Source: Candidatus Woesearchaeota archaeon (GTDB lineage: Archaea; Nanobdellota; Nanobdellia; Woesearchaeales; ARS49). Taken from it: DNA of 64,000 nucleotides. This document shows, in pieces, positions 3,929-43,659 of the stretch. Position 1 is the stretch's first letter, and every line of letters begins with the position of its first letter. The notes under the pieces were generated by a model. The model searched no databases. It was not told the origin of the DNA and saw only the letters and a program-made list of their open reading frames with translations. The stretch lies in contig WJJS01000001.1 of NCBI GenBank assembly GCA_014729505.1, positions 12,938-76,937 of the forward strand. The letters are read 5' to 3'. The position numbers were made by a program, and so were the translations under genes.

Positions 3929-6550
3929 TCAGTATTTCCTGAACAGCTTCACGATTTCGCCGAAAATCAAAACACTGGACGCTACAGCAGCAGCAATCAT
4001 CCAATCCATAAATGAAAGCGGAATCGTCTCAAAAAGAGTATTGAAAATACCAAGATGCACACTTGCAATTTGCAAACCAAAACTGAGCAACACCGCACCA
4101 ATCAACCATTTGTTAGACCATAACCCTACCGTAAAAATTGATTTCGTCTCAGAACGCTGATTAAGCACGTTAAACAACTGGAAAAGAACCAAGGTAGTAA
4201 AAGCCATCGTTTGCGCATATGTTTTATTCACCTCAGGCTCGTACCATTCAAACACAAAAAGAGTGCCAGCCATCATCAAAAGGCCAATAAACAACATAAG
4301 ACCTGCCCTGCTCTTGTTAACAATCTTTTCATCAATATCGCGAGGCTTTCGCTCCATAACTCCCGGTTCTTTAGGATCAACACTTAAACTCGTCGCAGGC
4401 AATAAATCAGTGGCAAGATTAATCCACAAAATCTGTCTTGCAGTTAACGGATCAATAAGGCCGAGAAGCGTTGCCACAAAAATAGTCAAAATCTCGCCGA
4501 CATTGCTTGATAACAAGTATATGACAAACTTCTTGATGTTATCATAAATAACGCGACCTTCTTCAACTGCACGAACAATAGTTGCAAAATTATCATCGGC
4601 AAGAATCATATCGCTGGCCTGACGAGAAACATCAGTACCAGTGATACCCATTGCAATGCCAAGATCAGCCTTCTTTAAAGCAGGAGCATCATTAGCACCG
4701 TCACCCGTCATAGCAACAATATGCCTGTTCTTACGCAGTGCATCGACAATATGCAGTTTATCCTCTGGATTAACACGGGCATAAATACTAATCTTTTCAA
4801 CATCACGCGAAAGATTGATAGACTCAAGCTCTACACCCTCAATAGCCCTGCCCTCAAGACCAATCTGTTTACCAATCGCTTTAGCAGTACCGAGATGATC
4901 GCCAGTAATCATCACCACCTTGATACCTGCAGCATTGCACGTCTTAATTGCTTTTTTAACCTCCTCTCGAGGAGGGTCAATCATGCCCTGCAACCCAATA
5001 AAGATCATGCTCTTTTCAATATCATCATGACTCAATTCATCCTTGAACTCCTTATAACAAAAACCAAGAACGCGCAAAGCCTGACTGGTAAATTCATCAT
5101 TTGTTTCAAGAATATGATCCCGATCCTCTTTAGTCAGCCGACGAACCTTTCCATCAACCAACATATGAGTACAAAAACCAAGCACCACTTCAGGAGCGCC
5201 CTTCGTATACGCCGTCTTCTTACCTTCAAAAGTGGAATGAATCGTCGTCATACACTTGCGTTCAGAACTAAAATCGATTTCATCAACGCGCGTATTATCA
5301 GAACGCACCTTGTCAAGATCAATACCTGACTTTGCTGCACTGACCAATAAAGCACCTTCAGTAGGGTCACCGACAATACTATGACGGCCCTGCTCCACAT
5401 CAAGCTGGGCATTATTGTTCAACACTCCTGCACGCAATAACGTATCAAGAGAGGATGTCTCTTTGGAAAAATCACCCTTTGGTTCATAACCAGAACCAGT
5501 TACCTGAACCACCTGTCCATCAACATACAGTTTTTTAACAGTCATCTCGTTATGCGTCAGCGTACCCGTTTTATCGGTACAAATCACCGTACACGCGCCC
5601 AGCGTTTCAACACTTGGAAGCTTGCGCATCAACGCCTTCTTCTTAGCCATGCGCTGCACGCCAAGAGCAAAAGCAATAGTAACCACTGCAGGCAAACCCT
5701 CAGGAATAGCAGCGACTGCAAGGGCAACAGCCTTTTCAAACACTTCAAGAAGATTTTTACCCAACAACACATCAACGCCAATCATCACCATAGCGATCAA
5801 GACCACCGCAGCAGTAAGCTGATATGCCAGTTTCTTGAGATCCTTTTGTATCGGCGTGGGCTCGCTTTTTGTCTTTTTGAGCATAGTTGCAATCTTACCG
5901 ATCTCAGTACGCATGCCAGTAGAAGTGACAACCGCCTTGCCGTGACCGGCAGTAACTGTCGTGCCAGAAAACACCATATTCTTCTGATCACCAATAGACA
6001 AACGATCAGCAATTCTCTTCACATCCTTTTTAACAGGAACAGATTCCCCGGTCAAAGCCGCTTCCTGCGTTTGCACATTCACCGCATCAATAAGACGAGC
6101 ATCTGCAGGCACAATATTACCTGTCTCCAGCACAATAATATCGCCCTTCACCACTTCTTCAGCAGGAATTTCGCGCCGACGACCATCACGAATAACAATG
6201 GCCTTAGGACTCACCATCTTACGCAATGCTTCAATAGATTCCTCGGCCTTATACTCCTGCCAAAAACCAAACAACGCATTAGCAATAACAACAATTGTAA
6301 TAACGTAAAAATCAATAAACTCTTGTAAAAACAAAGAAATACCCATCGCTGCCAAGAGAATCCAGACAAGAGGACTTGTAAACTGATGCAAGAAGATCAC
6401 AAACGGACTTATCTTCTTTTCACGCTCAAGAGCATTTTTACCAAACTTTTGCAAACGCTCCTTAGCCTGAGATTGTGATAATCCTTCCTTAGAAGAAGCA
6501 ACCTTATCAAATACCTTCTCCAAAGGCAGTTGATACCACTCTTTTTCCAT
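3929..6550 (-). CDS. P-type ATPase, type IIA (SERCA/PMR1-like Ca2+-transporting)
   Basis: DKTGTLT phosphorylation motif, [11 protein letters not shown] (TM4 PEGL), [49 protein letters not shown] (type II TM6 signature). Confidence 0.85.
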
Positions 6551-6648
6551 ATCCTGATGTACGCGCTAATAATTATATAATAGTTTCTATACCTGCTCTG
6601 GCAGACGACAAAAAATTTATATGCGTTGCACGTAACCGTCTAATAAAA

Positions 6649-7491
6649 ATGGTGAATGCAAGCGACCTGCTCACAACAACATACGTAACCTGTGATGTAA
6701 ACGACAGAATCTCCTCATTATTAGGAAAAATGAAACGAGCACAGGAAGGAGCTGCAGTCGTAACAAAAAAAGGAAACTATCTTGGCATTGTACATCGCAG
6801 TGCATTTCTCGTCTCGCGAGCGCATGCCAGCGATACAAAAGTAGCAAATATTTACCAACGCCGAAGCAAAGCAAAATCAAACTTTTTTGTACCAACATTA
6901 TCACGCACTTCTTCACTGCCAGTCATGTGCAAACGCATGCTGCAAAGCAATTCACGCATGCTGCCCGTCATGGAAAAAGACCGACTAATAGGAGTAGTTA
7001 AAGATATGGAGTTACTTAAGGCGATAGCTCCAGATTTCTCATCAATACCTGCATTTGAACTGGCAAGCACAGATTCAATAACGGTGAGAGAAAACAACGT
7101 TATTTATGCGGCCATGACTGCTATGAAAAAACACAAGATCGGACACATTCCTGTAGTGGATAAGAACGGAAAACTGTTAGGAATCCTCAGCGGTTATGAT
7201 TATCTGGAAATGCACTTACACTCACGATCACGAATGCATCAGTCACGCAAAGGAACACATTCTGACTACAAAAACCGAGGATTTGATACGGGCGAAAAAA
7301 TAAGTCTTGGAGACTTACCAGTACGAGATTTTATGAGCGAAAAAGTAATCACTGCAACGCCGCGCACAACAATCGCACAATGCATACAACTCATGATAGA
7401 CAATAATGCGCACAGCATTGTTCTCACACGATACGACAAGCCAGTAGGAGTACTTACCTGTCACGATATATTTATTCACGCCGCTCAATAG
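6649..7491 (+). CDS. CBS-domain pair protein (two tandem CBS pairs)
   Basis: Repeated hydrophobic-G-hhxxxD CBS-like segments (LGIVHRSAFL, LIGVVKDMELL, LLGILSGYDYL, VGVLTCHDIF); no other domain recognised. Confidence 0.55.
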   Translation: MVNASDLLTTTYVTCDVNDRISSLLGKMKRAQEGAAVVTKKGNYLGIVHRSAFLVSRAHASDTKVANIYQRRSKAKSNFFVPTLSRTSSLPVMCKRMLQSNSRMLPVMEKDRLIGVVKDMELLKAIAPDFSSIPAFELASTDSITVRENNVIYAAMTAMKKHKIGHIPVVDKNGKLLGILSGYDYLEMHLHSRSRMHQSRKGTHSDYKNRGFDTGEKISLGDLPVRDFMSEKVITATPRTTIAQCIQLMIDNNAHSIVLTRYDKPVGVLTCHDIFIHAAQ

Positions 7492-8320
7492 AAACGCCGG
7501 GAGTAAGAAGTTCCCGCGTAGATAAAGGACAGACAAACGAGGGCAACACTGGTTCTCCAGTACTTCGATTTTCAATTGTCGCGTCATGTCGTGATTGATC
7601 TCTTGAAAGAATGGCTCCGCGTGTTGCACGAAAATGAGTATACAAACGCGCAGCAAGTTCTTGCTCTGTAGGACCAACAATAGTATATTGTTGTCCATTG
7701 GACAATAAATGAACCTGCAACGGCATCTTATACGGCAAAACCAGTTCAGGACCATGAGCACTATTATCAAGATCCTGAGCAGACGCTGCAGAACCATTAG
7801 GATGCGAATGCCAGGTCAGTACATACTCGTGATTCGTTTGAGGACGACCATACGTGTGAGGCAAAATATGTTGACGAGCAACATGTTCAAGAACCTTACA
7901 ATCATCATCACTCCATTCATTTTTTGAAAGCAAAGGACGCGCTTTATCAATCGCTTCTACAACGCCAGTATTACCGGTACGCACGTGCACCCGGCGGGCG
8001 CGAGCAAACAGGCTCTTCATATTGTCAAGATGCTGTGCAGAACCCTCACGTAATTCATTGACATACTCGATCAAGTCAAGAAATTCATTACGCAAAGGAA
8101 CAACAATATAGCGTCCGTTACTCTCGCGGACAATACCGCCAGTTTCATACCCTTGTGTCAACTCGTGATTAGTCTGACTAAGCAAATCACTGCGTGTTTG
8201 ACTGTCCTCAAGCATTTGCATAACGCGAGGACGAATCTCGTCAAGAGAAATGGTGTGCTCGGGCGCGGTACAACCCGCAAGACCGGCCAGTACTATTGTT
8301 GCTAAACGTCGTCCACTCAT
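7472..8320 (-). CDS. Secreted lipoprotein, hypothetical (signal peptide + lipobox LAGC); contains HSHP...D motif
   Basis: N-terminus MSGRRLATIVLAGLAGCTAPE = signal peptide with canonical lipobox L-A-G-C; immediately downstream of lgt in same orientation. Confidence 0.5.
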   Translation of the reverse strand: MSGRRLATIVLAGLAGCTAPEHTISLDEIRPRVMQMLEDSQTRSDLLSQTNHELTQGYETGGIVRESNGRYIVVPLRNEFLDLIEYVNELREGSAQHLDNMKSLFARARRVHVRTGNTGVVEAIDKARPLLSKNEWSDDDCKVLEHVARQHILPHTYGRPQTNHEYVLTWHSHPNGSAASAQDLDNSAHGPELVLPYKMPLQVHLLSNGQQYTIVGPTEQELAARLYTHFRATRGAILSRDQSRHDATIENRSTGEPVLPSFVCPLSTRELLTPGVSIERRE

Positions 8321-9133: not shown

Positions 9134-9893
9134 ATGTAGCTAATGAAAAAAGACGAATAAATGATAAGAGCGGAAACAGCGCAAGACCAACAACAAATCC
9201 TGCAAAAGGACTTAACAGATTGACGCTATAGATAATGACCTGAGCGAAAGCAAGACTGCCGGCAATCACGACCATCATAGGAACAAAGAGTTTCCAACGT
9301 CGAAGCCCGAGACGAAACGCGTAACGCACATTCAAGGAACCATACGAAATAAGAGCGAAATACACAAGAGCGACAAGCAAGATATAGAACGGAATAAAAG
9401 GCCATACAGGTTTTGTCGTCGAAGTAAGCGATGCAATAAGAGTGTAGCGCAAATCAACATAGAGCAAAGCAAAAAACAACACAAGACCGGAGATAAACCA
9501 TGGCAGATTTACCAAAAAGAAACGAAGAAAAAACCTCTTGACTTCATACATAAGCAAGCGTCTAGACAAATGCCACGCCAAACCCTGAAGAACACCATAC
9601 ACGACGTAAGCAATCAAACCCGCAAGCAGCGTATATAGCACAAACCGCAGTACAAGAGGTTGCAAAGTGCTATGAGACACTAACGTCCACACACTAAACG
9701 AGTCAAGCTGTTGCAACACTTGACCGATACCAGTAGTCAGCGTAAAGGACAATTCCAGTAAACGATCAACAACAGGAGCAGTAGCAAAACCTAGCACAAA
9801 AAGAAAAGAGACATCAATAAGACCAAGAGCAAGCACCACTAACACATTGTTTTTCATCACTCGTGCAGTATAGTAAATACTCTTTTGTAACAT
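9111..9893 (-). CDS. Polytopic membrane protein, hypothetical
   Basis: Multiple hydrophobic helices throughout 260 aa; overlaps lgt start, same strand (operon). Confidence 0.45.
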   Translation of the reverse strand: MLQKSIYYTARVMKNNVLVVLALGLIDVSFLFVLGFATAPVVDRLLELSFTLTTGIGQVLQQLDSFSVWTLVSHSTLQPLVLRFVLYTLLAGLIAYVVYGVLQGLAWHLSRRLLMYEVKRFFLRFFLVNLPWFISGLVLFFALLYVDLRYTLIASLTSTTKPVWPFIPFYILLVALVYFALISYGSLNVRYAFRLGLRRWKLFVPMMVVIAGSLAFAQVIIYSVNLLSPFAGFVVGLALFPLLSFIRLFSLATYGMDSHD

Positions 9894-9894
9894 A

Positions 9895-11898
9895 TTATTT
9901 CGAACTTTTGAGATACCAATTCCTCAAACGGACAACCTTATCAACAACAGAAGGATACATATAGAACTGACCATATTTTTTTGCAGTTTTACTCAGCAAC
10001 TTATCAAGCTCAAGCATTTTGTACATCACCTGAATAGCGTCCTTTTTGCGATCGTATCTAAACAATAATTTGACAAGTTCGACGCCATCATCAGGATGTT
10101 TGGTCAACTTGTAAAAAATCTCCGCGTGAGAAACAGCCTTATCAGGATCGCCCTTTTGCGCATACAGTATAGAGATTGCTCGATGATACTGGGCAATCCA
10201 GGGCTTCTTTTTATGAAACTCATCGAGCAACTGCATTGCCTCGTCTATTCTACCCTGCGCATGAAGAATCTCTGAGTGCGCATGAACAAGATCAAACTCG
10301 CGAGTCCAAGAAGGTGCTTTATCAAGCAAAGACAGTCCCTTTTTTGGTTTTCCAACAAACGCGAGCAACACTGCTTCCCACAAAAGAAGAAACTCATTAT
10401 GAGGCGCCCTCTTACGAGCTTGTTGTACCACTCGAAGAGCGCGATCGTGATTACCGACGTGACTTAACGCGTTTATCACATGCTCTTCATATTGAAGATC
10501 CTTCTTGTGATATGGCAATCCCCTCTCAAGATACGCCAAAGCCTTTTTTGCTTTACCGTCACTGCGAGCAATACGACTGCCAGTAAGATAGCCAGTCTGA
10601 TCCTTAGGATACCACTTGATAATTTTGTCAGCTATCGGATACGCTTTGCCAGGCTTACCGAAATGATCGAAATCTTCGAGAAGAACATACAATGCGCGAA
10701 AGTTTCTGGGAAACTTCATAAGGACTTTTTTTGCCAGATCGTAATACGAGGTCCAGTCATTGCATTTTCGCAGACACTCAAGAGCAGAAAGCCAATTATC
10801 CAGGGTAGGAGGTAAGGAAAGAAACACCTTAGCAGCTTCGCGAAACCGGCCGAGCTCACGCAAGCAGGTAGCCTTTGTTTCAAGCAACACTATTGAAGAA
10901 TACTGCTTTAACTTTTTGTTTATCTCCCGCAATTTCTCCCGTTCATTGCCCTGCGTAAACAAGACATGAGGGTACAATGATGGAAGTTTGTCAATCTCAG
11001 AAGCTCTCTTCGCATATTCATGCGCCTTTTTATTCTTGCCGATGGAGAAATACAACGCAGTCAATCGGTTACACACATCAGAATTTTCAGGTTGCAAGAC
11101 TGCAAGTTTTTCATAGTCAGCAATAGCTTTCTTGACTTGATCTGTTACCATAAACAAATCAGCTCGGGCAGTGAGAATGCCTTCATCAGGACCCATCAGA
11201 GATATTGCATGTGTAAGAAACTTCTCCGCTTCACTGAATTTTCCTTCGGCTTTAAGAGAATCCACATACACCACGTAATCATATTCTGCAAATGAAAAAT
11301 TCTCTGCAAACGCTTGAGCAAAAAACTTGTTGGCCTTTTTATGCTCATGATTGTCAAAATACCGGCGTGCAAGATCAAGAAGACTGCGTGCAAGACCAAA
11401 CTTACGATGAATTAACTTCAAGGTCTGCTTATACTTCTTGTCATTTCGAGCATAATAATACAGGTGAGCGAGATCTTCATAATGAGACACTTTAAATGGT
11501 TCGAGCTTGATGACTTTCTTCATCGCGCTAAGAGCTTTAGAACTGTTTGTTTCCCTAAACAACCAATACACACGAAGAGGCCAATACACATTATTTGGTT
11601 GCCTCCTCATATACCTACGCAAAAGCCTTTCTTCACCAACAGCGTCGTGAAGCTCCCTATAGACATCAACTTTACTTTGCATAACATCAATTTCTTCAAG
11701 ACCGCACTCTCTTGCTTTGTCAAGGATTGCCAAAGCCTCCTTTTTCTTTTTGAGCTTAGAGAGTAACTCTGCTTTTCTCTGCAAATACAAAGGATGGCGA
11801 GGATTCTTTTCCAAAGCTCTATTGACGATGCGAAGCTGTTGACTAGTTGGTAAGTACGGATTAACAAACGGGAACACGGAATAGGTACAAGTCTTCAT
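9895..11898 (-). CDS. TPR-repeat protein (start chosen at MKTCTYSVFPF..., internal to the 721-aa track ORF)
   Basis: Recurrent A/Y/L-rich 34-aa repeat pattern (AxxYYxxAxxxxxxKxxxAxxxF); upstream tttaaatagtataaaaa TATA-like box supports start at 11896-11898. Confidence 0.6.
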   Translation of the reverse strand: MKTCTYSVFPFVNPYLPTSQQLRIVNRALEKNPRHPLYLQRKAELLSKLKKKKEALAILDKARECGLEEIDVMQSKVDVYRELHDAVGEERLLRRYMRRQPNNVYWPLRVYWLFRETNSSKALSAMKKVIKLEPFKVSHYEDLAHLYYYARNDKKYKQTLKLIHRKFGLARSLLDLARRYFDNHEHKKANKFFAQAFAENFSFAEYDYVVYVDSLKAEGKFSEAEKFLTHAISLMGPDEGILTARADLFMVTDQVKKAIADYEKLAVLQPENSDVCNRLTALYFSIGKNKKAHEYAKRASEIDKLPSLYPHVLFTQGNEREKLREINKKLKQYSSIVLLETKATCLRELGRFREAAKVFLSLPPTLDNWLSALECLRKCNDWTSYYDLAKKVLMKFPRNFRALYVLLEDFDHFGKPGKAYPIADKIIKWYPKDQTGYLTGSRIARSDGKAKKALAYLERGLPYHKKDLQYEEHVINALSHVGNHDRALRVVQQARKRAPHNEFLLLWEAVLLAFVGKPKKGLSLLDKAPSWTREFDLVHAHSEILHAQGRIDEAMQLLDEFHKKKPWIAQYHRAISILYAQKGDPDKAVSHAEIFYKLTKHPDDGVELVKLLFRYDRKKDAIQVMYKMLELDKLLSKTAKKYGQFYMYPSVVDKVVRLRNWYLKSSK

Positions 11899-11953
11899 AG
11901 AGTAACACCTAAGTCGAGAAAAGTTTAAATAGTATAAAAACCATACTGTTTTC

Positions 11954-12124
11954 ATGGCCAAATTGACACTACGATGCACTTCATGCAACTGGAAATTCCG
12001 CAGAGTATACGAACCAAAACTGTGTCCTAATTGTGGCAAAGCCACCGTAGAAAAAGACAAACGTCAAGGCGCTTCTGACATTCTGCGAGAACTCGACGAG
12101 ATGCAGTCGGGTTTTGATCGCTAA
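11954..12124 (+). CDS. Small zinc-ribbon protein (56 aa, two CxxC pairs)
   Basis: MAKLTLRCTSCNWKFRRVYEPKLCPNCGKATVEKDKRQG...; below ORF-track size cutoff; divergent from TPR gene. Confidence 0.4.
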   Translation: MAKLTLRCTSCNWKFRRVYEPKLCPNCGKATVEKDKRQGASDILRELDEMQSGFDR

Positions 12125-12159
12125 CTACATTCTTGTCTATTCTTTTTCAGAACACTATT

Positions 12160-13257
12160 CTACGACACTTCGTGAGTTTTGTACACCACATTAAGCGCAT
12201 CAAGATTGCGCAGCACATACATGCCATCATTTTCTACAGTGCCAAGATCACTCCATGTCGCCTGAATACCCTGATAGTACTGAGCCTCTTTATTGAACAA
12301 CACTGTTGGCGTAACGTTAATAGCATATCTTGACATCAAACGCTGACCATCAGGACTGGACACATCATAGGACACCTGACTCAAGAACACCATACCAAAA
12401 TTATCCTCAAAAATGGAAGTTACTGCGGAAGTATCAGAACAGGTCTCACACGTTTCATCAGTAAGAATAATCATAGTCGCTAATCCTCTCACGGTCTTTT
12501 CTTCACGATCAACATAGGGAGCAGGAGTATCACGAAGCACGTATTTACCATCTGACTCCACAGAACCAATACTCTGCCAGCCAGCACGAATAAACTCATA
12601 CTCAGAAGCATCATTTGAAAGAATAAGAGAAGGCGTTCTTGTAATATTATAATGATCAAGAAGACGCTGACCGTCAGCACTGGATGATTCAATCGTTTCA
12701 ATAGCTGAAAAGACCATCCCATTCAGTTCCAACTGCGAAAGCAAACGCTGAGTATCAAAACATTCAGGACAATTCTCATCCTCAAGAACAAGAGCAGTCA
12801 CCAAACCAAATACTTCGCCATCAAGATTAGAATACGGAACAAGAGAGTCAGACAAGACATAACCACTATCACTTTTTACAAACAAAGGAATCTGATCAAG
12901 ACGAGGATCAGCACCCTCAATAACAATAGCCGGCAATTTTTCAATAGAGAACTCCTCAATCAAAGATACTGCCTGGGCTTGCGTCTTATACTCCACTTCT
13001 TCAAAGACAAGACCTGCAAGTTCCAAAGCCTGAACAATCTCAGACGCGTTTACACACTGATCACAAAACGGTTGAATAACAGTTGCACGCAGTGAGGATG
13101 ATTCACTAGGCACAATGTCAATAACCGGTTCCTCGCCAGCGCGAGAAACGTAAAAAGACAAGATCACATTAGCCAACGTTGCAATAACAATCAAAACAAC
13201 GAGCAATACATGCAGCGTCGTCCACGGTGATTGCATCTTTTTTGCTGACATAGACAA
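12160..13257 (-). CDS. Membrane-anchored protein with three tandem thioredoxin/glutaredoxin-like domains, each with a CxxC motif (CDQC, CPEC, CETC)
   Basis: N-terminal TM helix then three ~100-aa repeats beginning hhhhxxxxCxxC and ending NhTxTPohhh (Trx-fold pattern). Confidence 0.5.
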   Translation of the reverse strand: MSMSAKKMQSPWTTLHVLLVVLIVIATLANVILSFYVSRAGEEPVIDIVPSESSSLRATVIQPFCDQCVNASEIVQALELAGLVFEEVEYKTQAQAVSLIEEFSIEKLPAIVIEGADPRLDQIPLFVKSDSGYVLSDSLVPYSNLDGEVFGLVTALVLEDENCPECFDTQRLLSQLELNGMVFSAIETIESSSADGQRLLDHYNITRTPSLILSNDASEYEFIRAGWQSIGSVESDGKYVLRDTPAPYVDREEKTVRGLATMIILTDETCETCSDTSAVTSIFEDNFGMVFLSQVSYDVSSPDGQRLMSRYAINVTPTVLFNKEAQYYQGIQATWSDLGTVENDGMYVLRNLDALNVVYKTHEVS

Positions 13258-35133: not shown

Positions 35134-36117
35134 TTGACCAAAAAGAGAATGTATGATATCATTACTATAGGATCCGGTACTGTCGACGTATTTGTAGAAA
35201 CAGAAGACAAGCAAATAGTGCCGCACAACAATCATCAAGACGTTTGCTATCACATCGGGGACAAAGTACTCATCAAACGATTGCAGCACAGCACCGGTGG
35301 CGGAGGAACAAACAGTGCTGTAGGATTCTCGCGTATGGGACTCAACACTGGCTGGATAGGTCAAGTAGGCCAAGACGCGAATATGCACTATATTATGGAA
35401 ACGCTGCAACAAGAACGCGTCACCTTTCTTGGCAACTGTTCAAAGGGTATGAGCGGTTACAGCGTTATACTCGTCGGACTGCGAAAAGACAGAACGATAC
35501 TTACCTACAAAGGAATCAACAATATGCTTGCCGTAAAGGACAAGGATCTCAAACAATTGAAAACGAAATGGTTCTATTTCTCATCAATGATGGACAAAAG
35601 CTTACGCACGCAAAAAAAGATAGCACAACACGCTAAGAAAAAAGGCATACGATATGCGTACAATCCGAGCTGTTACCTCGCAGAAAAAGGAATGAGAGTG
35701 CTCGGACCCATTGTACGAGGAGCCACAGTGCTTGTAATGAACGCACAAGAAGCAGCATACTTGCTTGACACTTCGCCACAACAAAAAGCAGAGAATGCCA
35801 GAGCACTCACCAAGTACGGCCAGTACGGTATTGTCACCGACGGGCCGCGGGAAGGCTATGCAAGCGACGGTACTCATCTGTACGTGTGGAAACCACGAAA
35901 AGCAAAAATCGTCGAAACAACAGGAGCAGGAGACAGTTTTGCTGTTGGAGTTGTCACAGGCATTATCAAAGGCATGACCCTAGCACAATCACTACAATTA
36001 GGCTATGCAAATGCAGTTTCAGTACTCGGAGAGATCGGTGCAAAAAACAACTTGCTCACATATCGTAATGCTCGACGAGAACTAAGGGAACATCCAGTGA
36101 GGGTAAAACGAATATGA
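35134..36117 (+). CDS. PfkB-family carbohydrate/nucleoside kinase
   Basis: IGSGTVDVF N-terminal GG-like motif, TTGAGDSFAVG anion-hole/DTxGAGD motif. Confidence 0.75.
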   Translation: MTKKRMYDIITIGSGTVDVFVETEDKQIVPHNNHQDVCYHIGDKVLIKRLQHSTGGGGTNSAVGFSRMGLNTGWIGQVGQDANMHYIMETLQQERVTFLGNCSKGMSGYSVILVGLRKDRTILTYKGINNMLAVKDKDLKQLKTKWFYFSSMMDKSLRTQKKIAQHAKKKGIRYAYNPSCYLAEKGMRVLGPIVRGATVLVMNAQEAAYLLDTSPQQKAENARALTKYGQYGIVTDGPREGYASDGTHLYVWKPRKAKIVETTGAGDSFAVGVVTGIIKGMTLAQSLQLGYANAVSVLGEIGAKNNLLTYRNARRELREHPVRVKRI

Positions 36118-37028
36118 TTATATCACTCAAACGTATGCTTGCACAAGCGAACAAGAAAAACTACGCTGTTGGCGCGTACAACATCAATAACATGGAATTT
36201 GTCCAAGCAGTTGTCAGCGCAAGCGAAAAAATGAACAGTCCAGCAATAATCTCGACAACAGAGGGAGCAATACGTTACGCAGGCATGCCATACCTGAAAA
36301 CGCTCGTCTACACGGCAGCAGCACACACAAAAATACCTATCACGTTTCATCTCGATCACGGAAGAGATTTTACGGTGATCAAACAAGCGATAAAAGCGGG
36401 ATACTCCTCAATAATGTATGACGGCAGTCATCTGCCTTTCAAAGAAAATGTTCGCAACACTGCAAAAGTCGTGCGATGGGCGCACAAAAAAGGAGTCAGC
36501 GTTGAAGGAGAACTAGGAACTATAGGTGGTGCAGAAGATCTCGTCAGTTCAAGAGAAATTATCTATACCGATCCAGACACTGCAAAAGAGTTCGTCGAAA
36601 AAACAGGAGTTGATGCACTCGCAATTGCTATTGGGACCAGTCACGGCGCGTACAAATTTTCAAGCACACCAACACTTGATATTGCGCGCCTCAAAACAAT
36701 AAAAAAACTCACTAAACTACCGCTCGTACTGCACGGCGCAAGTGAAGTACCACAATATCTGGTACGACAAGCGAACCGCTATGGAGCAACACTTGGCAAA
36801 GCTCGAGGAGTGCCAGACGCACAAATACGACAAGCAGTCAAGCACGGCATCAATAAAGTCAACGAGGATACGGACTTGCGCTTAGCATTTCTAGCCTCAA
36901 CTAGAAAAACACTCGTAAAACAACCAAGCGTATTTGATCCGCGAAAAATCCTTGGACCCGCACGAGATTACGTACAAAAAATCGTCGAGGATCGCATCAA
37001 ACTTTTAGGGAGTAAAGGTAAAGCATGA
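36114..37028 (+). CDS. fba: Class II fructose/tagatose-1,6-bisphosphate aldolase
   Basis: YAVGAYNINNMEF, FHLDHG, GELGTIGG, class II (metal) aldolase pattern; 304 aa. Confidence 0.8.
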   Translation: MIISLKRMLAQANKKNYAVGAYNINNMEFVQAVVSASEKMNSPAIISTTEGAIRYAGMPYLKTLVYTAAAHTKIPITFHLDHGRDFTVIKQAIKAGYSSIMYDGSHLPFKENVRNTAKVVRWAHKKGVSVEGELGTIGGAEDLVSSREIIYTDPDTAKEFVEKTGVDALAIAIGTSHGAYKFSSTPTLDIARLKTIKKLTKLPLVLHGASEVPQYLVRQANRYGATLGKARGVPDAQIRQAVKHGINKVNEDTDLRLAFLASTRKTLVKQPSVFDPRKILGPARDYVQKIVEDRIKLLGSKGKA

Positions 37029-37465
37029 AGGTTATACTAGGAGCAGATCATGCAGGATTCGCACTCAAAGAACACCTAAAAAAATACTTGAGCGCAAAAG
37101 GATACGACGTAATTGATCTTGGTGCAACAGTTCTCAAACCACGCGATGATTACCCAGACTATGCTGCTCGAGTTGCAAAACGCGTCGTAAAGCATAACGA
37201 ACCAGGCATTCTGGTGTGCGGCAGTTCTGAAGGCGTCTGCATTGCAGCAAACAAATTCAAAGGCATACGAGCAGTCTCGGCATGGTCAAAAAAAGTAGCA
37301 AAACTATCAAGAGAGCACGATAATGCAAACATACTCTGCTTATCAGGGTGGTTGCTCAGTAAAGAAAAGGCAAGCGGTATAGCTGACACGTTCTTAAGCA
37401 CGGCTTTTTCTAAGGAACCACGGCATGTCCGCCGTCTCAAAAAGATCGAAAAACTAGAACAATGA
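37025..37465 (+). CDS. rpiB: Ribose-5-phosphate isomerase B (RpiB/LacAB family)
   Basis: MKVILGADHAGFALKEHLKKYLSAKGYDVIDLG, GILVCGSSEGVCIAANK. Confidence 0.8.
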   Translation: MKVILGADHAGFALKEHLKKYLSAKGYDVIDLGATVLKPRDDYPDYAARVAKRVVKHNEPGILVCGSSEGVCIAANKFKGIRAVSAWSKKVAKLSREHDNANILCLSGWLLSKEKASGIADTFLSTAFSKEPRHVRRLKKIEKLEQ

Positions 37466-38088
37466 TACGCGTCATCCCCGCAGTCAATGCCACAACAATG
37501 CTGGCTTTACGAAAAAACATCTCAATCGCAGAAACACTCAGTCCACTTATTGACGTCGATATTTGTGATGGAAGATTCGTCGCGCGAAAAACGGTTTCCT
37601 TAACTCAATTACGAGGTCTGACAACAAAAAAGTTGAGCATTGATTATATGGGTCAACATCCAGCACGTGCGTTTGTTCGACTGCCAAAAAACACGTATCG
37701 TTTTGTGTTCCACGTCGAGGTAGCCAATGATATCGATGCTCTTATACGACGCTGTAAAGCACATAAGATCATTGCATCAATAGGATTGAATCCCGAGACT
37801 CCTGTTTCGAGTATCGCAAAGTATCTGGGTAAAGGAGTGCAGGTTCATCTCCTCACAGTACATCCAGGAAAAAGCGGACAAGAACTCATCCCTTCAGTAT
37901 TGCAAAAGGTGCGAAAGATCAAAAAGATACGGGAAGACACAAGGATTGGTATTGACGGAGGAGTAAACCTCAAGACCGCGAAACTGATCAAACGATATCC
38001 GCTCAACTATGTCTCAGCAACGTCAGCAATCTTTGGCGCAAAAGACCCAAAGAACGCGTTTAGGGAACTTAAGAAGGCGCTCAACTAG
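37462..38088 (+). CDS. rpe: Ribulose-phosphate 3-epimerase-like TIM-barrel protein
   Basis: LLTVHPGKSGQELI and GIDGGVN resemble Rpe MxVxPGFGGQ / DGG motifs; ATGA overlap with rpiB. Confidence 0.6.
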   Translation: MIRVIPAVNATTMLALRKNISIAETLSPLIDVDICDGRFVARKTVSLTQLRGLTTKKLSIDYMGQHPARAFVRLPKNTYRFVFHVEVANDIDALIRRCKAHKIIASIGLNPETPVSSIAKYLGKGVQVHLLTVHPGKSGQELIPSVLQKVRKIKKIREDTRIGIDGGVNLKTAKLIKRYPLNYVSATSAIFGAKDPKNAFRELKKALN

Positions 38089-38732: not shown

Positions 38733-38826
38733 AAGACTGAGAAGACAAGGACAACATATAAATTTTGCTTATCCTTATTGAGTAATCAACAGCAAGATTA
38801 AATACTATTATCCCATCGCGGTACGC

Positions 38827-39483
38827 ATGTGTGGCCGCTACGCAATAGTCCAACAAAAAAACGATCTTGAAACATTCTATGACGCCAACATGAAAGCAGC
38901 ATGGAAACCGCGATACAACGCAGCACCCACACAAGAATTACCACTAGTGCTTGACGCAGATCCTGCGCATATCGTAGTCGCTCGATGGGGACTTATTCCT
39001 TTTTGGGCAAAAGACGACAAGATAGGAGCACGACTCATCAACGCACGAAGCGAAACTGTGGCAGAAAAACCGACTTTTCGAACATCGTTTAAGAAACGAC
39101 GATGCCTCATTCCCGCTACACATTTTTACGAATGGAAGAAAACAACAAGCATCAAGAAACCATTTGCAATTCATCTGAAGTCAAAAGAGTTGTTTTCATT
39201 TGCAGGACTGTGGGATGAATGGAAGAGTTCTAAAGGAGAATTGATTCGCACGTTTACAATATTGACGTGCGGTCCTAACAGTGTAATGAAAAAGATCCAT
39301 GATCGCATGCCGGTCATACTCAAAAAATCTGACGAAGAGGCGTGGATGAATCCTACGAGCTCAGAGACTGCACTGCAGAAGTTGTTGAAACCTTTTTCAT
39401 CGTCGCAACTCGTCGCGTACGAGATCAGCACGCTTGTCAACTTGCCGACAAACGACAACCCTGCAGTAGTACAACCAGTCTAA
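38827..39483 (+). CDS. SOS-response-associated peptidase (SRAP/YedK/HMCES family), abasic-site processing protein
   Basis: N-terminal MCGRY (Cys2 nucleophile), LIPFWAKD, HFYEWKK motifs. Confidence 0.85.
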   Translation: MCGRYAIVQQKNDLETFYDANMKAAWKPRYNAAPTQELPLVLDADPAHIVVARWGLIPFWAKDDKIGARLINARSETVAEKPTFRTSFKKRRCLIPATHFYEWKKTTSIKKPFAIHLKSKELFSFAGLWDEWKSSKGELIRTFTILTCGPNSVMKKIHDRMPVILKKSDEEAWMNPTSSETALQKLLKPFSSSQLVAYEISTLVNLPTNDNPAVVQPV

Positions 39484-39535
39484 TCTCTACATTCTTTCTC
39501 ACAAGTCACAAGACACGACTTCGCAGCGCTTTTTA

Positions 39536-40006
39536 GTGACTACGCTTTTGTTTTTTGTCATGGGGTTATTAGGGGTGCGAGGAGAACAACGTATCATCAA
39601 TGATCATATTCTCTACTATGCCGTTTATCACACGCCGTGTTTATTGATCGACGCAGCAAACTGTGCAAACCCACACAAACTATATCCTCTGGCACGTGAA
39701 GAACAACTCTACAACATCCACGTTATTGAAGTCGAACTACTCTACGTTTTTCGCGACGTCCTACTGCGCTGTCACCGCTTTGCACAACAACGAGCAGTGC
39801 GCCACATACTCCTCACGACATTCAACCAACTCTTTCACTATCAAGACGCCAAAGAAAACGACAACATCCACGAACATGCATGGGAATTGCTGCGCACACT
39901 AGGACAACGCTATGACGTACGCGTCGGCATACATCACCGTCACGAAGCGCGCGCAAGACGATTTTGTGACGCGATCATTACGCAGCACTCTCTGGCGGGA
40001 TATTGA
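39536..40006 (+). CDS. Hypothetical protein; possible degenerate RecA/RadA-fold (inactive P-loop GLLGVRGEQR, LLIDAAN...P segment)
   Basis: Weak pattern resemblance to inactivated RecA-like proteins (ImuA/RadB-like); same operon as SRAP and PolB-like gene. Confidence 0.3.
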   Translation: MTTLLFFVMGLLGVRGEQRIINDHILYYAVYHTPCLLIDAANCANPHKLYPLAREEQLYNIHVIEVELLYVFRDVLLRCHRFAQQRAVRHILLTTFNQLFHYQDAKENDNIHEHAWELLRTLGQRYDVRVGIHHRHEARARRFCDAIITQHSLAGY

Positions 40007-40009
40007 ATT

Positions 40010-40324
40010 ATGGGACATACCGTATGGAGCCAACGGATGAATGCAGAGCGCATCATCACAGAACTACTTCGTTACAAGAAAGCATTGCGAAGCGAACAAC
40101 AAGCACTGTTTGACGAATTACTGAAACGATCCATGAATCATCTCGGTACCATAAGTTACGCAAACAGCATGCACACCTGGGCATTACTGCTCTTATCAAT
40201 ACTACTAGAACAAGAACAACGCATAAAGAAACTAGAACATGTGGTTAATAGATACCTATCAAAAAAAGAACAAGATCGTCGTGTGGCTGAAAACGAAAAC
40301 GACGAATATGCATCGAACCTATGA
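40010..40324 (+). CDS. Hypothetical helical protein
   Basis: ORF in operon; 4-nt spacing from previous gene, overlaps next. Confidence 0.35.
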   Translation: MGHTVWSQRMNAERIITELLRYKKALRSEQQALFDELLKRSMNHLGTISYANSMHTWALLLLSILLEQEQRIKKLEHVVNRYLSKKEQDRRVAENENDEYASNL

Positions 40325-42794
40325 GTACTCTGTCACACTCTACGCACACGAAGATGCACGAGAATTCCTTACAACGAACAAGATTGCTTTTACAGAACAA
40401 CTCAAAAAAGATCCTTTTCGCAACAAGAAACATGTTCTTGCCATAACGTTATCATGCGAACGACTCGCACCATTTGTAAGATGGTTTGAACTCGGCACCA
40501 AACACCGCATACCGCTTTACAATGCAGATATCACGCCGGAACAACGCTTTCTTTACGAGAACAAGCTAGTACCGTGCAGCAACGTGCGAGACGTTGATGG
40601 GAGACTTGTACACGTCAACGAATCCGCACCACCGCTAAGCACTGTTCATTTGCGATGCGCCACACAAGGACCTATTACACGATTAGAATACCAGGATCAC
40701 ACTATCGTAGGCGAGGAACGAGAAGTACTCGCGCATTTTACGCAACGCTTCAGACAGGACGATCCAGATGTACTACTTATGCGACGAGCATACAAAGCAG
40801 TACCACATCTCTTTGAACGGTTACGTGCGAACGGATTGCACGTGCCTTTTCATCGATGGGATGAGATACCGCTGCGCCACCGCGGCGGCAAGACACACTT
40901 CAGTTACGGAAGAGTATATTATCAAGATCACTCGTTTCAACTGCGAGGACGATTACTCGTTGACACGGCAAGCAGTGTAGGATCAACATGCTCTGTACCT
41001 GCAATCATCGAACTTGCACAGCTCACAGGCACTCGATTCCAACGCGTAGCAGCACGCAGTTTCGGTGCCTCATTTCAACTTCAACTCGTCAAAGAACTGC
41101 TCGCCCAAGATCTGCTTGTGCCATACAAGGAAAAACCCTTTGATGAACCGCTGCGCATGACAGAGTTATTCGACGCAGACAGAGCAGGACATACCTTTGA
41201 TCCTCAACTAGGATTTCACAATGATGTTGTAGCAATAGACTTCTCAAGCATGTATCCATGGATCATCCACAACTACAACATCAGCGCAGATACCATACTC
41301 ACAAAAAAAGGAAAGAAGACCAAGATTCCTGCAGTACCAATTGATGTAACCACACAATATCAAGGAGTGATACCAAAAGCAATCAAACCATTGTTAGATC
41401 GACGCATGTACTACAAAAAACATCCGACGCCGGAAAACAAACGACGAGCAATAGGACTAAAAACACTGCTCGTGACCTGTTATGGTTATCTGCGATTTCG
41501 CGAATTTAAAATGGGACTTGCCACATCACACATGGCAATTTGTTCATACGCGCGAGAACTCCTCCTACAATCAGCAACGCTTGCAGAAGAACAAGGCTTT
41601 CGCGTCATTCACGGCATCATCGATTCACTCTACATATCAAAAAAAGACATTACCACAACAGAAGTCGAAACATTTCGAAAAGAACTAGAACACATGAGCG
41701 GTATACCCGTTGCCTGCGATGGCATCTTCAAATGGATCGTGTTTCTTTCACGACGACATGACAACACTGTCGGAGTGCCGGCCCGTTATTTTGGCGCATA
41801 TAAAAATGGTGGCATTAAAGCAAGAGGTATTGAAGTACGACAATCGAGTGCGCCGCTACTTATACGACGATTCCAACAAAACGTGTTAGAAGAGCTCGCA
41901 GCGTTTTCAACGAAAAGAGCGATACAGGATCACTTGCCACAAGTCATGAAACGCGCACGAGCAGTCCTGCACGATCTGCCTGCGACGCCACGAGAAGAAC
42001 TGTGTTGCAGAATACGCATCAGTAAGACCACGTATTCTCGAAACATTCCACAACGGCAAGTGATACGCTTGTTAACACAACAAGGGAGAGACATTATCGC
42101 TGGACAGGTCATACGGTTCTGGTACAGTGCGAATGGACCGTTACTAGTCGATATGACTGGAAGGCCAGACTACAAAAAATATCGCGATTTGTTATTACGC
42201 GCAATACACTCAGTGTACCAGCCTTTCGGTTATACTACCAAACAACTACAACACCTCCTATTAGACGAATATCAAAGCGTTCTGCAAGATTTTGCGCGAC
42301 AACAGATCCGCTACGAATACGTGCCTATGAAAAAACACTATGCACAAAAACGAGGACTGTCAGAGAGAATCCTGCGACAACGACTGGAACGACAAGGATG
42401 GACGGTGTGGCGCGGCGGCAGCATACATATTACTCGTTATGAAGAACTGTATCCCAACGTACGACGAAAGTACGAATTACTCATCCGTCTGCTTGACGAT
42501 CATAAGCCAGACACAAAAGAAATACTGCAATATTATTGCATGATACAGCACGGCATGCCAGATTTTCTCTGCTACAAAAATGGACGATTCAAATTTGTTG
42601 AATGCAAATTGCAATACGAGCAATTAAGTCATCGACAAAAACGCTGCATTATGAAGCTACAAGACCTGGGATTTGATGTGGAAGTTCACAAACTCGTTGA
42701 CAAACGCACAAAAATGAGAGAGGCACTAGTTGACATGTTTACCAATTGCAAAATAGTACGAGAACGACAACTAGCCCTACTCTCAACATGGTGA
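40239..42794 (+). CDS. Family-B DNA polymerase-like protein lacking recognisable 3'-5' exonuclease motifs, motif C variant IIDS, fused to C-terminal VRR-NUC nuclease domain (start uncertain, 40239 or 40306)
   Basis: Motif A AIDFSSMYPWII, motif B KTLLVTCYGYLRF, motif C region RVIHGIIDSLYI (DTD replaced by IID), KxY KKYRDL; C-terminus GMPDFLCYKNGRFKFVECK...LSHRQKRCIMKLQDLGFDVEV = VRR-NUC (PD-(D/E)xK) pattern; no DxE/YxxxD exo motifs found. Confidence 0.7.
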   Translation: MWLIDTYQKKNKIVVWLKTKTTNMHRTYEYSVTLYAHEDAREFLTTNKIAFTEQLKKDPFRNKKHVLAITLSCERLAPFVRWFELGTKHRIPLYNADITPEQRFLYENKLVPCSNVRDVDGRLVHVNESAPPLSTVHLRCATQGPITRLEYQDHTIVGEEREVLAHFTQRFRQDDPDVLLMRRAYKAVPHLFERLRANGLHVPFHRWDEIPLRHRGGKTHFSYGRVYYQDHSFQLRGRLLVDTASSVGSTCSVPAIIELAQLTGTRFQRVAARSFGASFQLQLVKELLAQDLLVPYKEKPFDEPLRMTELFDADRAGHTFDPQLGFHNDVVAIDFSSMYPWIIHNYNISADTILTKKGKKTKIPAVPIDVTTQYQGVIPKAIKPLLDRRMYYKKHPTPENKRRAIGLKTLLVTCYGYLRFREFKMGLATSHMAICSYARELLLQSATLAEEQGFRVIHGIIDSLYISKKDITTTEVETFRKELEHMSGIPVACDGIFKWIVFLSRRHDNTVGVPARYFGAYKNGGIKARGIEVRQSSAPLLIRRFQQNVLEELAAFSTKRAIQDHLPQVMKRARAVLHDLPATPREELCCRIRISKTTYSRNIPQRQVIRLLTQQGRDIIAGQVIRFWYSANGPLLVDMTGRPDYKKYRDLLLRAIHSVYQPFGYTTKQLQHLLLDEYQSVLQDFARQQIRYEYVPMKKHYAQKRGLSERILRQRLERQGWTVWRGGSIHITRYEELYPNVRRKYELLIRLLDDHKPDTKEILQYYCMIQHGMPDFLCYKNGRFKFVECKLQYEQLSHRQKRCIMKLQDLGFDVEVHKLVDKRTKMREALVDMFTNCKIVRERQLALLSTW

Positions 42795-42882: not shown

Positions 42883-43659
42883 ATGCACAAAGCATTAACG
42901 ATAGTATTGCTAGGAATTCTTCTAGTTGGATGCTCAACAACACTAGACACGTCGTCGACAAATCCGCCAACAGCGCCGCACTCAACTTCAAGTCCTCCAA
43001 CAACACAACACCCCGCAACAGAGAACAATTCACAACACACCACAACACAAAATGATTCACAATATCCGACAACGCAGAACGATTCACAACACACGGCAAC
43101 CAATGACTACGTTGCGGGACGAGAACTCTTCAAACTACAACGGGATTCAGACAGTGCACTGGGACAACGAGTAACAGACTTTTTCCCACTTCCTGCAGGA
43201 GCAGTTCTTGTCGAGACAAGACATTTTGGAGCGCAACAATTCAAAGCAAATCTTGTATCAAAAACAGGAGACATATTTCCTTTAGTCAATGATGAAGGAT
43301 ACATTCTTACCACTACGCTGCACTCTTTTGCGGCAGGCCAGTACCTGCTAGACATGATCATCAATGGCGAAGTTACCTTTATCATACGAACACCGGACAT
43401 AGAAGAAGCAACATCATGGAGCGGAGCCGGCAAGAAGTTCACCCCCTTCTTTACACTTTCAGGAACCAACACCTTTGAGATGTCGTTTCAAGGAAATGGA
43501 TTATACATCGTGTCACTATACAATCAAGCAGGAGAACGCATCGCCGTACTTGCACAAGGCGACACCACAGAAAAAACAAACACTGACGTAACCGTACCAC
43601 AAGGACTCTATCTGTTAGGTATAGAATCAACAGGAGTCTGGGACATACAACTCAAATAA
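42883..43659 (+). CDS. Secreted lipoprotein with Thr/Ser/Gln-rich linker (lipobox LLVGCS), hypothetical
   Basis: MHKALTIVLLGILLVGCSTT signal peptide; repeated NDSQ(H/Y)(T/P)TTQ units. Confidence 0.55.
   Translation: MHKALTIVLLGILLVGCSTTLDTSSTNPPTAPHSTSSPPTTQHPATENNSQHTTTQNDSQYPTTQNDSQHTATNDYVAGRELFKLQRDSDSALGQRVTDFFPLPAGAVLVETRHFGAQQFKANLVSKTGDIFPLVNDEGYILTTTLHSFAAGQYLLDMIINGEVTFIIRTPDIEEATSWSGAGKKFTPFFTLSGTNTFEMSFQGNGLYIVSLYNQAGERIAVLAQGDTTEKTNTDVTVPQGLYLLGIESTGVWDIQLK

Follow-up and report, generated by a model that had tools for sequence, protein, structure and literature searches.

The 64,000-nucleotide stretch analysed here (the window) comes from a Candidatus Woesearchaeota archaeon and covers positions 12,938 to 76,937 of contig WJJS01000001.1 (assembly GCA_014729505.1); all positions below are those of the window unless a related locus is named. 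At 38827-42794 it carries four co-directional open reading frames (ORFs) on the plus strand, which encode an SRAP-family protein, a degenerate RadA-like protein (iRadA), a small helical protein (PPB2) and a family-B DNA polymerase with a C-terminal VRR-NUC domain. A preliminary description, made from the letters alone, had proposed a new mutasome-like damage-tolerance operon here. The ORF listing and a motif check place the four frames and every motif that it quoted where it had put them. With high confidence, we interpret the locus as a chromosomal archaeal PolB2 translesion-synthesis operon of the iRadA–PPB2–PolB2 type, preceded by its frequent partner SRAP. This core has been described before, SRAP neighbour included; the part for which we met no earlier description is a FAN1-like nuclease fused to PolB2 in Woesearchaeota. 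The features of the locus are as follows, where PIP denotes a PCNA-interacting peptide.

38827..39483, plus strand: SRAP gene, 218 aa, protein starting MCGRY
39560..40006, plus strand: iRadA gene (ORF2), 148 aa from an ATG; extendable to a GTG at 39536 (39536-40006, 156 aa)
40010..40324, plus strand: PPB2 gene (ORF3), 104 aa, arCOG07300-type small subunit
40239..42794, plus strand: whole PolB2::VRR-NUC ORF, 851 aa
40239..42272, plus strand: PolB2 polymerase body, residues 1-678
41172-41192, plus strand: D314-R315 loop motif in DADRAGH, the D(K/R) hallmark of PolB2
41238-41267, plus strand: polymerase motif A, DFSSMYPWII, residues 334-343
41460-41489, plus strand: polymerase motif B, KTLLVTCYGY, residues 408-417
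41610-41627, plus strand: polymerase motif C, HGIIDS, residues 458-463
41817-41843, plus strand: KARGIEVRQ, in the polymerase body
42273..42296, plus strand: PIP-box-like motif 1, Q679-SVL-QDF-A, at the end of the thumb
42300..42767, plus strand: FAN1-like VRR-NUC domain, residues about 688-843
42768..42791, plus strand: PIP-box-like motif 2, Q844-LAL-LSTW, at the extreme C terminus

The PolB2 polymerase and its partner proteins

The large protein classifies as a PolB2 (Dpo2-type) family-B polymerase. Pfam DNA_pol_B matches residues 280-632 (E 7e-14), NCBIfam NF004416 'type B DNA polymerase' matches residues 1-666 (E 3e-94), and family-B polymerases in the Protein Data Bank (PDB) match with E-values down to 6e-21. 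Its full-length identity to the PolB2 genes of canonical operons is 27-33%, and the stretch between motifs B and C is close to that of a haloarchaeal PolB2 quoted in the supplement of PMC11791011. The identical protein is deposited at NCBI (GF342_00350, from a Candidatus Woesearchaeota metagenome-assembled genome, MAG), and homologues at 40-50% identity number in the hundreds, so the ORF is not a product of chance. A scan of one genome per species with the polymerase yielded 80 loci. About 51 of them lie in Woesearchaeota/Nanoarchaeota-type MAGs, hereafter the clade, and share 33-53% identity with the window protein in the best segment; the others, at 26-33%, come from Thaumarchaeota, Bathyarchaeota, Thermoplasmata and Asgard-type (Heimdall-/Kariarchaeota) MAGs and a few bacteria.

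Residue conservation in the polymerase was scored over 38 homologues, all of which have D314, D334, K408, D462 and K527; R315 is kept in at least 90% of them. The palm, fingers and thumb carry motifs A, B and KxY, as expected of family B. The loop around D314-R315 has the consensus LLKxDRAGHTFDP, and the segment before it would, by analogy with published PolB2 proteins, bind iRadA. Motif C has the family consensus HGIVDS, in which the first aspartate of DxD is replaced and the second (D462) kept; in a HMMER alignment to a solved archaeal PolB, IHGIIDSLYI stands opposite IYGDTDSLFV, as expected from the IIDS that the preliminary description had reported in place of DTDS. The Exo motifs that it had not found are likewise absent from our alignments: Pfam DNA_pol_B_exo1 gave no match at E<=1, the position of the Exo II NGDSFD reads RRAYKAV, and no invariant DxE occurs within the N-terminal 250 residues of the 38 homologues. 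These comparisons indicate that the exonuclease domain is decayed and retains no proofreading active site.

Replacement of the first motif C aspartate could mean that the polymerase moiety is dead and serves only as a scaffold, which binds DNA and PCNA and brings in the VRR-NUC domain, with iRadA and PPB2 as regulators. PolB2 was indeed long predicted to be inactive owing to this motif, a view that predates 2020 (PMC4104785). However, the Dpo2 enzymes of S. islandicus and S. solfataricus carry the same IID and are robust polymerases. The S. islandicus enzyme, the PolB2 prototype (Feng 2020/2022, PMC7390963, PMC8764526), has the motif at 401-IID-403, possesses no exonuclease and extends mismatched and lesion-opposed termini (Feng et al. 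2022, PMC8764526). Because that enzyme is active, IIDS by analogy is not a sign of inactivity. The invariance of D334, K408, D462 and K527 across the clade suggests selection on catalysis, and more than half of the clade's polymerases carry no nuclease. We therefore consider a dead scaffold very improbable and, by extension from the characterized relatives, expect the window PolB2 to be an extender polymerase.

The first gene is recognizable as an SRAP/HMCES/YedK-family abasic-site protein, as first proposed. Pfam SRAP matches with E 2.8e-74 over profile positions 1-205 of 214, essentially the full length. The predicted catalytic Cys2 follows the initiator methionine in MCGRY, and the motifs INARSET, HFYEW and HDRMP stand at residues 71, 99 and 158.

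Pfam assigned no family to ORF2 or ORF3, and their identities come from profile, fold and positional comparisons. For ORF2 the preliminary description had noted a decayed Walker A and a RadA-like LLIDAAN segment, a resemblance that it called weak and that has become considerably firmer. GVRGEQR occupies the place of the P-loop and lacks GK[ST], ILLTT stands where Walker B would be and contains no aspartate, and LLIDAAN corresponds to the 'IDTE'-like strand of RadA. Only G5, N14, A21, D31, E59, F64 and E99 are invariant in the family. The protein has a Rad51/RadA ATPase-core fold from which the N-terminal helical domain is absent, and an hhalign comparison of the ORF2 family (41 members) with 20 positional iRadAs of canonical operons gave a probability of 96% (E 4.8e-9). 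On the basis of the profile–profile and fold comparisons, ORF2 is iRadA, an inactivated RadA/Rad51 core. Its start is probably the ATG at 39560 (MGLLGV..., 148 aa) rather than the GTG at 39536, because the family alignment supports it, as does the length at which the protein is deposited at NCBI. In a word-indexed homologue search, ORF2 alone retrieved 2 proteins, and a 69-sequence alignment retrieved 24, mostly PPB2; the six-frame ORFs of the 80 loci told much more. We also considered the iRadA tail QHSLAGY as a PIP box and dropped it, as the tail is not conserved in the family.

ORF3, described at first simply as a helical protein of 104 aa, is PPB2, the helical accessory subunit. It begins with the N-terminal arm MGHTVWSQR, in which Arg9 is present and histidine takes the place of Arg3; the MGHT of this arm (MGHTxxSQR) is strictly conserved in the clade alignment. 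An iterated PPB2 hidden Markov model (HMM) reached PPB2-position genes in 62 loci, including the canonical operons of Thaumarchaeota, Bathyarchaeota and Chloroflexi, and homologues bear the precomputed Pfam family PF26485.

A FAN1-like nuclease at the end of the polymerase

The VRR-NUC signature noted at the C terminus of the polymerase corresponds to a genuine domain match: Pfam VRR_NUC scores 29.8 bits against a cutoff of 23.8 (E 6.6e-7), with a range of 29.8-33.1 bits across checks. The catalytic set comprises E709 (in GLSE), D775 (in GMPDF, 772-776), and E788 and K790 (in FVECK, 786-790), together with Q800. These five residues are invariant in 43 fused proteins and in a set of 31 fused and standalone proteins, which points to a complete PD-(D/E)xK site.

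FAN1 is the top match of this domain both by structure and by profile. In the structure model, three helices are inserted between β1 and β2 of the nuclease fold. FAN1 has an insertion at the same point, which prevents dimerization and makes a monomeric 5′ flap nuclease out of a junction-resolvase fold (Pennell et al. 2014, PMC4103454), and the helical insertion therefore predicts that the nuclease described here is a monomer. The domain follows directly after the polymerase thumb. Because it has no SAP or TPR domains, it is FAN1-like and not a FAN1 orthologue.

This nuclease family is small. An exhaustive search of 1.84 billion representative proteins found only 119 clusters at E<=1e-3, made up of standalone proteins of 160-230 aa and PolB2 fusions of roughly 830-860 aa. 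The nuclease is fused to the polymerase in 20-21 of the 51 clade loci (~40%) and in none of the distant PolB2 genes. One locus carries the two proteins separately (L037:5905-12156): within 6 kb lie an unfused PolB2 (5905-8115), an SRAP gene on the minus strand (9293-9865) and a standalone VRR-NUC protein of 164 aa (11662-12156), which adjoins SRAP 3.5 kb from the polymerase and ends in the PIP-like tail EKQERLKLHY.

Two PIP-like motifs flank the fused nuclease. In the first, Q679 is at least 90% conserved in the 38 homologues and invariant in the 43 fused proteins; the family pattern is (E/D)RQxx[LIV]x[DE][FYW], and in unfused relatives it lies at or near the C terminus. In the second, Q844 is invariant in the 43 fused proteins, and an ERQxxL...[FYW] tail also ends standalone nucleases such as the one at L037. 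The arrangement suggests that two proteins, each ending in a PIP-like tail, were joined, and both motifs would be expected to bind PCNA.

We examined a single origin of the fusion with a neighbour-joining tree of the polymerase region; its outcome was limited to finding fused and unfused forms interspersed. The fused state required 28 parsimony changes on this crude tree, in which one truncated protein is misclassified. Only 69% of the proteins agree in state with their nearest neighbour. By identity, too, the fused and unfused polymerases are intermingled, and one fused/unfused pair shares 70% identity. Read from so crude a tree, this pattern suggests repeated fusion or fission.

The preliminary description did not recognize the arrangement as a described one. 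For the core this did not hold, as the operon is in the literature (PMC4104785, PMC11791011); for the VRR-NUC fusion it stands so far. Our searches of the literature pairing VRR-NUC with PolB, PolB2 or archaea returned no report of a fusion, which, given their incomplete coverage, is absence of evidence only. The accessible portions of PMC11791011 and its supplements contain no mention of 'VRR', 'nuclease', 'DPANN' or 'Woesearchaeota'.

Conservation of gene order and chromosomal setting

The gene-neighbourhood conservation on which the preliminary description would have its proposal judged is clear. Synteny was counted from six-frame ORFs of the 80 loci, searched with the window proteins. About 40 of the 51 clade loci contain the iRadA–PPB2–PolB2 triad. 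Across all 80, ORF2 homologues occur in 41 and ORF3 homologues in ~55, directly upstream of the polymerase and on the same strand (nearly always so for ORF2), and the two are naturally fused in nine loci. SRAP adjoins the operon in 19 of the 51 clade loci (37%), usually just downstream and on either strand. Clustering of all neighbouring ORFs in the clade revealed no recurrent neighbour besides SRAP, and neither DUF72 nor Orc1/Cdc6 recurs among these 51. The distant Thaumarchaeota, Bathyarchaeota and Chloroflexi loci carry PPB2 and a positional iRadA that is longer than in the clade, in the canonical layout. Among them, Thaumarchaeota/Bathyarchaeota operons (in the range L052-L080; for example, L054:3702-4502 and L057:2885-4616) have a duplicated PPB2 and an adjacent DUF72 gene, as published.

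A role in defence, which the preliminary description had offered as an alternative, found no support. On that reading, the cassette would be a mobile element or an anti-phage polymerase–nuclease effector rather than a host damage-tolerance system. VRR-NUC domains are common in phages, the flanking genes vary between genomes, and an IS481 transposase lies near the operon in one relative (L024). Against this, a PADLOC scan produced no defence-family match apart from a spurious one of 16 bits, and neither integrase, terminal repeats nor capsid genes recur near the operon in related loci, where SRAP, a repair protein, alone recurs as a neighbour. In the window, the flanks are housekeeping genes, with pentose-phosphate and glycolysis enzymes (PfkB kinase, class II aldolase, RpiB, Rpe), ferredoxin, TspO and HIT. 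Of the alternatives that we weighed, a mobile or defensive cassette is the one to which we give least credence.

A further possibility is that PolB2 is the main or only family-B replicase of these reduced genomes, in which the nuclease replaces Okazaki flap processing. The family is very widespread in Woesearchaeota/Nanoarchaeota MAGs, its PIP-like motifs are conserved, and a FAN1-like 5′ flap nuclease joined to a polymerase recalls the 5′ nuclease fusions of Pol I type. However, the enzyme has no proofreading, and the iRadA, PPB2 and SRAP genes to which it is closely linked are marks of the damage-inducible PolB2 system. Characterized PolB2 enzymes, as far as the accessible parts of two reports go, are dispensable repair polymerases (PMC8100216, PMC7785828). 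A replicase is accordingly hard to credit, and the translesion-synthesis operon remains our interpretation of the locus.

Directly upstream of the operon, 35134-38088 holds a compact sugar-phosphate cluster (PfkB-family kinase, class II fructose-bisphosphate aldolase, RpiB and ribulose-phosphate 3-epimerase), which points to an ordinary chromosomal setting. The AT-rich TTAAATACTATTAT element in 38798-38826, ~25 nt upstream of the SRAP ATG, may serve a leaderless transcript as an archaeal TATA box. The 76-nt spacer between SRAP and iRadA (39484-39559) has no obvious equivalent of the TTAAATACTATTAT element, and SRAP, iRadA, PPB2 and PolB2 may therefore be co-transcribed. The 3′ end of the PPB2 gene overlaps the 5′ end of the PolB2 gene by 86 nt (40239-40324); overlaps of roughly 16-110 nt between these two genes recur in related loci, and the C-terminal tails of PPB2 are not conserved. 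Downstream, 42883-43659 encodes a 258-aa protein with a lipoprotein-like N terminus (…LLVGCST) and Thr/Gln/Pro-rich imperfect repeats (TTQNDSQ...), for which Pfam returned no family.

Several operons of the clade type, with polymerases at ~43% identity to that of the window, lie on contigs with unexpected labels (L024, on the 2.0 Mb contig JACKFL010000005.1, and L025, L029, L038, L040, L044 and L009). Their labels include Omnitrophota, Brocadia and Acidobacteriota, and others read 'uncultured Methanosarcinales'. The bacteria-labelled contigs are either mislabelled bins or a second archaea-to-bacteria transfer, beyond the single one proposed in PMC11791011.

Proposed mechanism and comparison with known systems

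Several observations weigh against our interpretation of the operon and of its nuclease. The NCBIfam match of the polymerase scores under the curated cutoff (316 vs 516), and extension from mismatches and lesions has been shown only for Sulfolobus Dpo2. Plain HMM searches do not tie ORF2 to RadA or to canonical iRadA: its profile found nothing significant among PDB sequences (KaiC at E 1.2), and four rounds of hmmbuild and hmmsearch on its family stayed at 41 loci and never reached the canonical iRadAs. A standalone nuclease lies within 6 kb at only 1 of ~25 unfused loci, and one standalone homologue (P0147) sits in an unrelated context, with EF-1alpha and S10 as neighbours. Finally, without the DNA-binding SAP and TPR domains of FAN1, the substrate preference of the nuclease may differ.

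By homology to characterized relatives, the four proteins could act as follows. SRAP would bond covalently through Cys2 to abasic sites in single-stranded DNA at stalled forks and so shield them. PolB2, which lacks proofreading and keeps the motif A aspartate and the second motif C aspartate, would assemble with one iRadA and a PPB2 trimer. Its PIP-like motifs would tether the complex to PCNA, where it would extend mispaired or lesion-opposed primer ends as S. islandicus Dpo2 does. The FAN1-type nuclease would make a structure-specific cut by the bypass site, whether by 5′ flap or 5′–3′ processing of the strand downstream or by incising next to the lesion, so that bypass and clean-up would be carried out by one PCNA-bound machine.

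A more specific and decidedly speculative version, which we think unlikely but worth stating, is that one 'incise-and-extend' machine, docked on PCNA, is built from the PolB2::FAN1-like fusion, iRadA, PPB2 and SRAP. The monomeric nuclease would first cut next to a blocking lesion, and the Pol zeta-like extender would continue synthesis beyond it. The lesion might be an interstrand crosslink derived from an abasic site, an SRAP–DNA crosslink intermediate or a displaced 5′ flap. If true, archaea would have their own counterpart of the eukaryotic pairing of FAN1 and Pol zeta in crosslink repair, and no prokaryotic relative of the FAN1 catalytic module would be closer than the small DPANN nuclease family.

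The core of the operon adds little to what is published on PolB2 operons with SRAP neighbours. The fused nuclease can be read as a 'Rosetta stone', suggesting that lesion-bypass synthesis is physically coupled to a structure-specific DNA cut in one archaeal lineage. It gives a testable hint on what happens around a PolB2 bypass site in vivo and would extend the published parallel between PolB2 and Pol zeta towards the FAN1 pathway. At ~160 aa, it is also a compact FAN1-type nuclease suited to biochemical study. The strong linkage to SRAP makes the clade a good place to test how abasic-site shielding and translesion extension cooperate.

The closest known system is the PolB2 mutasome. The linkage of PolB2 with a small helical protein (arCOG07300, ~90 aa) and a RadA-family protein with destroyed ATPase motifs, in some cases recognizable as RadA by HHpred only, was reported in 2013-2014 (Makarova 2014, PMC4104785). 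Timinskas 2025 named iRadA and PPB2 and modelled a heteropentameric PolB2–iRadA–(PPB2)3 'PolB2 mutasome' (PMC11791011). That study describes a substituted first DxD aspartate (IID/IVD; 401-IID-403 in S. islandicus), a conserved D(K/R) loop motif, a 'MGRT' arm in PPB2, iRadA–PPB2 fusions and C-terminal clamp-binding motifs. It also found SRAP and DUF72 genes enriched near polB2, with SRAP in 134 of 1823 operons, and the accessible part of its supplement gives the order 'orc1/cdc6 SRAP iRadA PPB2 PolB2' in haloarchaea, with the motif HGIVDS. The window operon shares the gene order iRadA–PPB2–PolB2 (group '1a'), the dead exonuclease, the IxD of motif C and the D(K/R) loop. As in the published system, its iRadA is a RadA core that has lost the N-terminal domain and the ATPase residues, PPB2 has a conserved N-terminal arm, relatives contain iRadA–PPB2 fusions, SRAP is a neighbour, and putative clamp-binding motifs lie toward the C terminus. 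It differs in an unusually short and diverged iRadA (148 aa), in a PPB2 arm that reads MGHT, not MGRT, in the absence of Orc1/Cdc6 and DUF72 neighbours from the clade and in a far commoner SRAP linkage (19 of 51 loci vs 134 of 1823 operons). It differs in domain content too, by the C-terminal FAN1-like VRR-NUC domain and the second PIP-like motif after it, present in ~40% of the clade.

The mutasome analogy drawn in the preliminary description is also the one used in the literature. The bacterial ImuA–ImuB–DnaE2 and Pol V (UmuD′2C–RecA) systems and Pol zeta share a common logic: the polymerase that tolerates damage is paired with a protein of the RecA family (inactive ImuA, or RecA) and with small accessory subunits. 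In bacteria, SRAP genes often lie close by as well, and Pol zeta, like PolB2, is an exonuclease-dead family-B extender. However, the bacterial polymerases belong to families C and Y, the window operon has no ImuB, UmuD or DnaE2, and none of the bacterial mutasomes or Pol zeta has a fused nuclease. The likeness is an analogy and not a homology of systems.

For the nuclease, the comparison is with FAN1 of human and P. aeruginosa and with the minimal enzymes of the same fold. Unlike FAN1, the domain described here spans only ~160 aa, has no SAP, TPR or UBZ domains and is either free-standing or fused to a polymerase. Minimal phage and bacterial VRR-NUC proteins and archaeal Hjc lack the β1–β2 insertion and are dimers that cut four-way junctions (PMC4103454), whereas the insertion is present in the Woesearchaeota domain, which moreover sits on the polymerase, a single-copy subunit in the published model of the complex.

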